From NCBI GenBank assembly GCA_964357615.1, contig CAYHMC010000010.1:1-44453 (forward strand): a stretch of DNA of 44,453 bases. The letters are read 5' to 3'. A model generated the notes under the pieces. That model was not told the origin of the DNA, did not search any database, and was given only the letters and a program-made list of their open reading frames with translations. Below are positions 28,309-29,081 of this stretch, piece after piece. A program made the translations under genes and the position numbers. Numbering within the stretch: the first letter of the stretch is position 1; each line of letters starts with the position of its first letter. Origin of the DNA: an uncultured Candidatus Saccharibacteria bacterium (GTDB taxonomy: Bacteria; Patescibacteriota; Minisyncoccia; UBA6257; JACOXY01).

Positions 28309-28433
28309 TTCGAATCCTTTTTGAATTTGCTTTTTTTACATTAACATAAAATTATAATCAATGAAATAAAGATTTTTGCTTTTAGGTGGTGGAGCAATGG
28401 AAGTTTAAATGTTATGAAGCGCAATGCATAAAA

Positions 28434-28462
28434 TTGACAATTTAGAATATTTAATATATAAT
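28434..28462 (+). promoter_or_regulatory. Consensus sigma70 promoter TTGACA-N17-TATAAT driving cassette 3
   Basis: Exact hexamers with a 17-nt spacer. Confidence 0.5.
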
Positions 28463-28513
28463 ATAAATAGTTAGGACCTTGGTTCGCAATGAAAACCACG
28501 AAAGGAGAGACCA

Positions 28514-28996
28514 TTGGAATACCCAAATCTTGGCAGGAAGTTGGTGCTCTGGCGCAAGGAATACAGGCAGAATGCCTATCGCGACCAGATGGGGCGAACT
28601 CATGGCGCTCAGGTGGTTCTGGAGCAGTTTCCAGTCACCATTGTCGAAGTTAAGCCTGTTCCAAACAGGTATGGCAGTGGAATGAACGAGGGCTGGAAGG
28701 CCATGACAGATGATGGTGAATTTTTCACCTGTAACTGGGATGTCTTCCCAGACGAATCCATGAACCCAACTTTCCACTGGTATTCGGTAGAGAGGGATAG
28801 TGATGACGGGCCGTGGACCCCAGTAGATGCCTGTCAGGCTGTGAATATGGGCATGGATGTTCATGTTACCCCTGAAGGAGAGCCTGCGATTCCGGTTGGC
28901 GCGACTCTCTGTGAGAAACACAATCAAGTGTATCTCGAGGGTGACGATTGCTTCGAGTGCGCAATGCGCAAGCTTCGAAGAAATAGCCATTCGTAA
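28514..28996 (+). CDS. Hypothetical protein of ~50% GC (TTG start), Cys-rich C-terminus (C ... CEKH ... CFEC)
   Basis: AAAGGAGAG Shine-Dalgarno 6 nt upstream; the terminator at 29026 supports the + strand over the overlapping minus ORF. Confidence 0.55.
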   Translation: MEYPNLGRKLVLWRKEYRQNAYRDQMGRTHGAQVVLEQFPVTIVEVKPVPNRYGSGMNEGWKAMTDDGEFFTCNWDVFPDESMNPTFHWYSVERDSDDGPWTPVDACQAVNMGMDVHVTPEGEPAIPVGATLCEKHNQVYLEGDDCFECAMRKLRRNSHS

Positions 28997-29025
28997 GTCA
29001 ATCAATCAAATGCTAAACTCGTATA

Positions 29026-29060
29026 GAGCCCCAACGAGTATAAATAGGGGGCTTTTTTAT
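29026..29060 (+). terminator. Intrinsic terminator (AGCCCC ... GGGGCT then TTTTTT)
   Basis: Seen in the sequence. Confidence 0.55.
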
Positions 29061-29081
29061 TTTTTATATTTTAAAATTTTA

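Follow-up and report, generated by a model that had tools for sequence, protein, structure and literature searches.

We report that a short cassette at positions 28434-29068 (+ strand) of the window, the whole 44,453-nucleotide stretch of DNA that was analysed, is best explained as a horizontally acquired, phage-derived, moron-like transcription unit which carries a single gene and is part of neither the cytochrome P450 gene on one side of it nor the MVP homologue on the other, a reading to which we assign a probability of about 0.6. From its 5' to its 3' end the cassette comprises a promoter, a Shine-Dalgarno sequence, a TTG start, a 160-codon open reading frame (ORF160), a hairpin and a T-run. 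As an earlier note on this DNA had stated, it sits between the P450 gene (27064-28308, - strand, identified by Pfam), from which ORF160 diverges across an intergenic region of 205 nt, and the gene for an 864-aa MVP homologue (29203-31797, + strand; Pfam MVP_shoulder, 1.6e-21, and Vault_3, 3e-13), which follows directly downstream on the same strand, 207 nt from ORF160.

The predicted sigma-70-type promoter of ORF160 (28434..28462, + strand) matches the consensus at 12 of 12 positions, with the -35 hexamer TTGACA at 28434-28439, a 17-nt AT-rich spacer and the -10 hexamer TATAAT at 28457-28462, just as the earlier note had described it. The perfect TTGACA-N17-TATAAT arrangement occurs twice in the 44-kb window, at 18355 and 28434, and in none of 100 dinucleotide-preserving shuffles of the window. 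Sites that match at 11 or more of the 12 positions number only four, and one of them lies directly upstream of a SAM riboswitch, so that high-scoring sites in the window appear to mark real promoters. Given where the -10 element lies, transcription would start near 28469 and produce a 5' UTR of about 45 nt (28469..28513, + strand), in which GC content rises from ~28472 and a Shine-Dalgarno sequence, AGGAG, is found at 28503-28507. A gap of 6 nt separates it from the TTG at 28514, the sole start codon that the open frame offers ahead of the conserved N-terminus. Starting there, ORF160 (28514..28996, + strand) encodes a protein of 160 aa and 18.4 kDa with a pI of ~5.0. Homologues align with this protein from residue 6 on and the stretch AYRDQMG (residues 21-27) is invariant, so the TTG start proposed previously holds; the Shine-Dalgarno sequence described with it is present as well. 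The NCBI call for ORF160 (P0001), a product of 104 aa beginning at M57, is too short because the true start is TTG, and lacks 56 conserved N-terminal residues; the ENA gene calls contain the full 160-aa product (P0273). The analysis shows that the ORF160 unit has a complete and very strong set of predicted sigma-70-type expression signals.

At its 3' end the unit carries a hairpin that resembles an intrinsic terminator (29025..29068, + strand). Its stem, AGAGCCCC / GGGGCUUU, consists of 8 bp with 5 G-C pairs (29025-29032 / 29048-29055) and encloses a 15-nt loop, after which TTTTTTATTTTTT follows. A GC hairpin terminator had been claimed before, and the GC-rich stem and the T-run are indeed present; however, the loop is long, the energy of the RNA fold is unexceptional (centroid -11.8 kcal/mol, z -0.85), and a consensus terminator scan did not call the hairpin at 29025-29055, because of the long loop. 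We therefore regard an intrinsic terminator as plausible, and, given its mediocre quality, some read-through from ORF160 into the MVP gene as possible. The 5' arm of the hairpin could also take part in another pairing, ACUCGU / ACGAGU (29017-29046), which would sequester that arm. A sub-threshold Rfam match to the rimP leader (26.5 bits, the gathering score being 47) extends across both the putative terminator and the promoter of MVP. The idea that the GC-rich block is a non-coding RNA was considered and rejected, since the evidence for protein coding is strong and no Rfam match rises above threshold.

The composition of ORF160 departs sharply from that of its surroundings, in line with the earlier description of the cassette as foreign DNA of ~50% GC. 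Its GC content is 51.3%, that of the window 36%, and its GC3 of 0.559 lies about 7 sd from the mean of 0.250 (sd 0.043, max 0.372) of 39 other genes; the neighbouring P450 and MVP genes have values of 0.25 and 0.30. The codon-usage distance to the host, which the note had proposed as a check, likewise marks the gene as foreign, its synonymous-codon log-likelihood under host usage being -1.18 as against -0.97 ± 0.06 (z ~-3.5). In a 30-nt profile the high GC is confined to ~28472-29052, that is, to the transcribed part, and the promoter is AT-rich like the host DNA, which is compatible both with its having come with the gene and with its having evolved in place. Since the GC step is abrupt, a product of assembly or binning, in which higher-GC reads were chimerically joined into a low-GC contig, has to be considered. 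A contig of 2566 bp from replicate R1 of Hain_H41_01um, however, is 99.9% identical to the window over 27799-30364, with just two differences, which fall in the P450 and MVP genes outside the cassette, and a 1290-bp contig from replicate R2 has the same P450(-)/ORF160(+)/MVP(+) arrangement. Although these replicate contigs are of low coverage (cov 2), three separate assemblies agree on both junctions of the cassette, and the promoter and the terminator-like hairpin are correctly placed relative to ORF160. The probability of an artefact is vanishingly small; the cassette is real, and a chimera is excluded by the replicate assemblies. Neither att-like sites nor flanking repeats that would reveal an insertion were detected around it, the matches found being short, AT-rich and at chance level.

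The window is a complete public contig, on which a ribosomal-protein operon lies together with genes for SecY, two P-type ATPases and a class II (D/K/N-type) aminoacyl-tRNA synthetase, two tRNA genes, the SAM riboswitch and a likely prfB. Its uL2 is 61-66% identical to uL2 of Paceibacterota, Harrisonbacteria and Nomurabacteria MAGs, and 0.1-µm filtrates from well H41 in the Hainich groundwater yielded contigs that are nearly identical to it. By this sequence evidence the host is an ultra-small, Paceibacteria-like CPR/Patescibacteria bacterium of groundwater. No integrase or phage structural gene was found among the scanned proteins of the 44-kb contig, and no prophage was detected on it.

ORF160 belongs to an uncharacterised, phage-associated protein family. 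A word-indexed search of 5.8 billion proteins returned only two relatives; a profile search that covered 1.84 billion representatives exhaustively gave 185 clusters with E <= 1e-3, 88 with <= 1e-10 and 23 with <= 1e-30. A search of IMG/VR and GTDB genomes with narrow patterns (A1) yielded no relatives. Family members are mostly 120-230 aa long, and even the closest homologues of ORF160 are only ~50% identical to it. Over the 39 sequences of alignment A2, W89 is invariant and L12, D24, G60, A63, W75, C133, H136, C146 and C149 are each conserved in at least 90%; some members (P0003, and the form found in locus L012) are missing the C-terminal Cys/His part. Both single-sequence and profile searches with ORF160 and the 39 A2 members gave no credible match in Pfam, PHROGs, NCBIfam, PADLOC or the PDB sequences, and no defence model of PADLOC-DB v2 matched ORF160, the other cassette proteins or the neighbouring genes at E <= 0.01. 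Homology to a housekeeping family with similar GC in related genomes, which the earlier note had named as the result that would speak against its reading, was not found.

Several candidate matches were examined and set aside. A profile match to APOBEC3F (E 0.05, over 39 residues) and matches of single members to Lar, Zn_ribbon, Chromo and TafC do not rise above noise. An apparent Microbacterium phage 'glycosyltransferase' (tblastn E 6e-3) reached no more than 1.8 bits with the profile of the family. Two giant surface proteins from the search of representatives (P0208 and P0209) contain 14-21 weakly matching stretches within Bact_surface_Ig-like repeats (PF16403), and we regard them as summed repeat noise.

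The encoded protein contains five cysteines, and four of its conserved Cys/His residues form two pairs, as is expected of the ligands in treble clefs and zinc ribbons. These pairs are C133-E-K-H136 and C146-F-E-C149, encoded at 28910..28960 (+ strand), and each of the four residues is conserved in at least 90% of the A2 sequences. Structure prediction, another check that the note had proposed, gave a confident AF2 model when the family alignment was supplied (pLDDT 95.8, pTM 0.88). In this model a long beta-hairpin (strands 9-23 and 29-51) is followed by two further strands, an aromatic-rich coil and a short helix; the CEKH knuckle falls between strands 131-133 and 138-140, and the CxxC motif starts the helix at 147-159. 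A zinc site is plausible on these grounds, and its predicted layout looks more like a treble clef than like the classical form of the zinc ribbon that the earlier note had thought possible. The family does keep a CxxH...CxxC motif. The best structural matches to the model in BFVD, at TM ~0.5 and probability 1.0, are uncharacterised phage proteins, and none of the solved structures gave a significant match to the predicted fold. The C-terminal helix is basic (AMRKLRRNSHS), whereas the protein as a whole is acidic. Lar-like restriction-alleviation proteins (PF14354 / phrog_6422), examples of the small treble-clef and zinc-ribbon proteins of phages, resemble ORF160 in their small size, a four-ligand CxxH/CxxC motif and a context of phage accessory genes. 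However, just one of the 39 family members shows a marginal match to them (E 0.03 and 0.0037) and ORF160 itself none, and the conserved ~125-residue N-terminal region of ORF160 is absent from Lar-like proteins.

All other family members with a readable genomic context lie in phage-like arrays of small same-strand genes. In loci L002 and L012-L014 runs of 10-45 small same-strand ORFs surround the family member; L010 lies on a 212-kb contig with NAMPT, NMNAT-like, NUDIX, TROVE and AAA genes, and in L015 GIY-YIG/NUMOD3 homing endonucleases and a T4-type RNaseH stand beside the member. With an intermediate alignment (A6), two IMG/VR viral contigs of 460,987 and 206,528 bp were found to contain a full-length family member, the E value of 1.7e-30 referring to the profile run against a six-frame translation of those two loci only. 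The phage copies have a GC3 of 0.07-0.36 that matches their own contigs, whereas the window copy is unlike its host, a mismatch that speaks for recent transfer out of a higher-GC source. Although the homologue searches found no close donor, the best identity being ~50%, the composition points to a phage, or the host of a phage, with ~50% GC as the probable donor. An observation of its own concerns the member at 7296-7670 of L012, which is shared by L013 and L014, phage-like contigs of 29% GC. It is called as a protein of 87 aa that stops at a TGA; under code 4 its frame continues, the TGA aligns with the invariant W89 and the match to the profile improves from 124 bits to 156, so these phages probably read TGA as Trp.

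The earlier note had suggested that ORF160, which directly precedes the MVP gene, may be functionally tied to this vault-like locus; its product would then serve the MVP-like protein as accessory factor, as cargo or as regulator. The adjacency on the same strand at a distance of 207 nt is consistent with this idea, as is the read-through that an imperfect terminator might allow, and a lineage-specific partner is conceivable for bacterial MVP homologues, for which we know of no partners. The MVP gene, however, has its own promoter-like site at 29082-29110 and its own terminator at 31820-31841. With L007, the closest MVP locus (84% identical at the amino-acid level), homology of the DNA begins only at ~29081, at the -35 element of the MVP promoter and just past the putative ORF160 terminator; it covers a conserved leader of ~90 nt and stops right behind the terminator that both loci share. 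These features argue that MVP is a separate unit and that ORF160 was inserted upstream of it. Moreover, neither tblastn nor a profile search detected an ORF160 relative in the three closest MVP loci (84, 71 and 70% aa identity), whose neighbours are unrelated, no MVP gene occurs near any ORF160-family member with readable context, and the more than 6000 MVP homologues, which are widespread in bacteria, stand against ~185 clusters of the ORF160 family. The codon usage of the two genes also differs sharply (GC3 0.56 vs 0.30). The published work on bacterial and phage MVP homologues that was consulted gives no evidence of a conserved neighbouring gene, and one such paper speaks neither of operons or neighbours nor of genomic context. 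We conclude that the proposed tie is very improbable, and a tempting lead, ORF160 as the partner of a bacterial vault-like protein, is thereby left unsupported.

Some features of the MVP locus deserve mention in their own right. The shared MVP unit corresponds to 29081-29202 and 31800-31860 in the window and to 5887-6000 and 8560-8616 in L007, and the flanking genes of the two loci are entirely different. Within this unit the leader is better conserved than expected for intergenic DNA, for instance at CATAAGTCCAAC.GGAAATG, and may be a regulatory element. Downstream of MVP, a 776-aa protein (31927-34257) has no Pfam match, matches PHROG pectate-lyase and hydrolase families (6e-24) and contains apparent tandem dockerin-type D-x-D-x-N-G-S segments; a small GIY-YIG gene and a PP2C phosphatase gene come after it.

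The earlier note had counted the ORF160 cassette as one of three of its kind in the window, and we find the other two at ~18355-19460 and ~42700-43450. Each of the three high-GC units combines a perfect or near-perfect sigma-70 promoter with a terminator-like hairpin. The first cassette, just downstream of tRNA-Met, has the other perfect promoter of the window, genes for a 124-aa membrane protein and a 174-aa lipoprotein (GC3 0.78 and 0.69; 57-60% GC) and a strong hairpin. Matches to its lipoprotein are phrog_24725 (3.7e-27) and genes from phages of Synechococcus, Clostridium and Vibrio, and identity to phage genes reaches 54% (Synechococcus phage S-SRM01). In the second cassette, a TTGCAT-N17-TATAAT promoter with a TGn extension precedes a hydrophobic ORF of 41 codons, starting at GTG 42809, and a 141-aa ORF (42967-43392, GC3 0.75), and a strong hairpin at ~43413-43443 is followed immediately by the likely prfB; its proteins have no match in Pfam, PHROGs, PADLOC or phage records. 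When the upstream regions of the three cassettes were aligned, only the promoter hexamers proved to be common to them, and neither mobility genes nor convincing target duplications were found at any of the three, the flanking repeats being short and AT-rich. Upstream of the first cassette, we observed a 16-nt perfect inverted copy of the T-arm/acceptor end of the tRNA (18056-18071 vs 18284-18299). The 212-nt GC-rich segment between the two 16-nt copies (18005-18300 region) ends in a hairpin at 18235-18265 and belongs to no Rfam family.

Compact foreign units of this sort invite comparison with known classes of mobile genes. Integron cassettes, too, are compact single-gene units of foreign composition in a chromosome. 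They normally lack a promoter, carry attC at their end and adjoin an integrase gene and attI; ORF160, in contrast, has a dedicated perfect promoter, and neither an attC-like repeat nor an integrase was seen. Closer is the resemblance to phage morons, which are defined by their own promoter and terminator and a deviant GC content (Cumby, Davidson and Maxwell 2012, PMC3594210; e.g. HK97 gene 15), because ORF160 is likewise an independent unit with its own promoter (12/12), a terminator-like hairpin and a deviant base composition. Morons, however, are insertions inside phage or prophage genomes, whereas ORF160 lies between the chromosomal P450 and MVP genes on a 44-kb contig where no prophage was detected; as it has no prophage around it, ORF160 does not strictly qualify as a moron. 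For aquifer Patescibacteria, the transfer of individual genes and of small genomic islands has been documented (PMC12455944). Those cases are similar in that a Paceibacteria-like groundwater lineage has acquired DNA of foreign composition; they comprise islands, prophages and transferred genes recognised by tree or composition methods, and that report mentions neither promoters nor the ORF160 family.

According to the reading that we prefer, a phage-derived gene would have entered the CPR chromosome between the P450 and MVP-like genes and would now be transcribed constitutively as a monocistronic mRNA. Its predicted product, acidic and of ~18 kDa, would have an N-terminal part rich in beta structure, including the long beta-hairpin, and a treble-clef-like zinc finger at its C-terminus. 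By analogy with small acidic phage accessory proteins, this product would probably bind a protein or nucleic-acid partner and not be an enzyme, and the host would probably keep it, as it may the lipoprotein cassette, for the reason that its expression changes how a phage infection turns out, with exclusion and interference as examples. The binding role and the retention by the host are guesses that we hold with much lower confidence than the origin and architecture of the unit. To call ORF160 a small acidic zinc-finger binding protein in phage-host interaction is accordingly a low-confidence guess, and a role in defence or exclusion is wholly conjectural.

What the unit does for its host, if anything, is where a serious alternative arises, namely that it is recent passenger DNA, neutral or slightly harmful, that has not yet decayed and has no host function. 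The cassette was found in one population only, that of a single groundwater well, it is missing from relatives, its composition has not drifted toward that of the host, and no mobility gene or known function is attached to it, all of which would suit a passenger. Against this, ORF160 is intact and retains every nearly invariant residue of the family, and it is equipped with a perfect promoter, a good Shine-Dalgarno sequence and a terminator-like hairpin. A 12/12 promoter is not to be expected by chance, and that another foreign cassette has one too suggests that expression has been selected for; streamlined CPR genomes should quickly lose DNA that is expressed but useless. On balance we consider a mere passenger unlikely, though clearly worth keeping in view. 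The zinc-finger motif and the basic C-terminal helix, together with the 205-nt intergenic region shared with the divergent P450 gene, could instead suggest a host transcription regulator of P450 or of MVP. But the protein is acidic (pI ~5.0) and has no match among the DNA-binding families of Pfam or NCBIfam, its relatives reside in arrays of phage genes, away from any P450 or MVP gene, and the zinc-finger part is absent from P0003 and the L012 form, so that we hold such a regulator to be highly unlikely. A broader proposal treats the three high-GC units together, as the outcome of a recurrent capture of single phage genes by CPR bacteria in the form of expression-ready modules outside any prophage, kept as constitutive anti-phage interference factors; we regard it as rather doubtful.

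In summary, a phage-derived moron-like unit remains our preferred account of the cassette, which offers a clean and well-delimited case of a single phage gene residing in a CPR/Patescibacteria chromosome with expression signals of consensus strength. The horizontal acquisition of an accessory gene is in itself an ordinary kind of event. Beyond it, the analysis corrects a truncated public gene call from 104 aa to 160 aa and brings to light a family of ~185 clusters that is unannotated in Pfam, PHROGs, NCBIfam and PADLOC and combines a conserved zinc motif with a confidently predicted fold; as this fold has no significant match among solved structures, the family is a reasonable target for structural and functional work. 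If the capture of phage genes as expression-ready modules were indeed to be true, ORF160 would stand as the founding chromosomal member of a protein family of huge phages that has a previously unseen zinc-stabilised fold.
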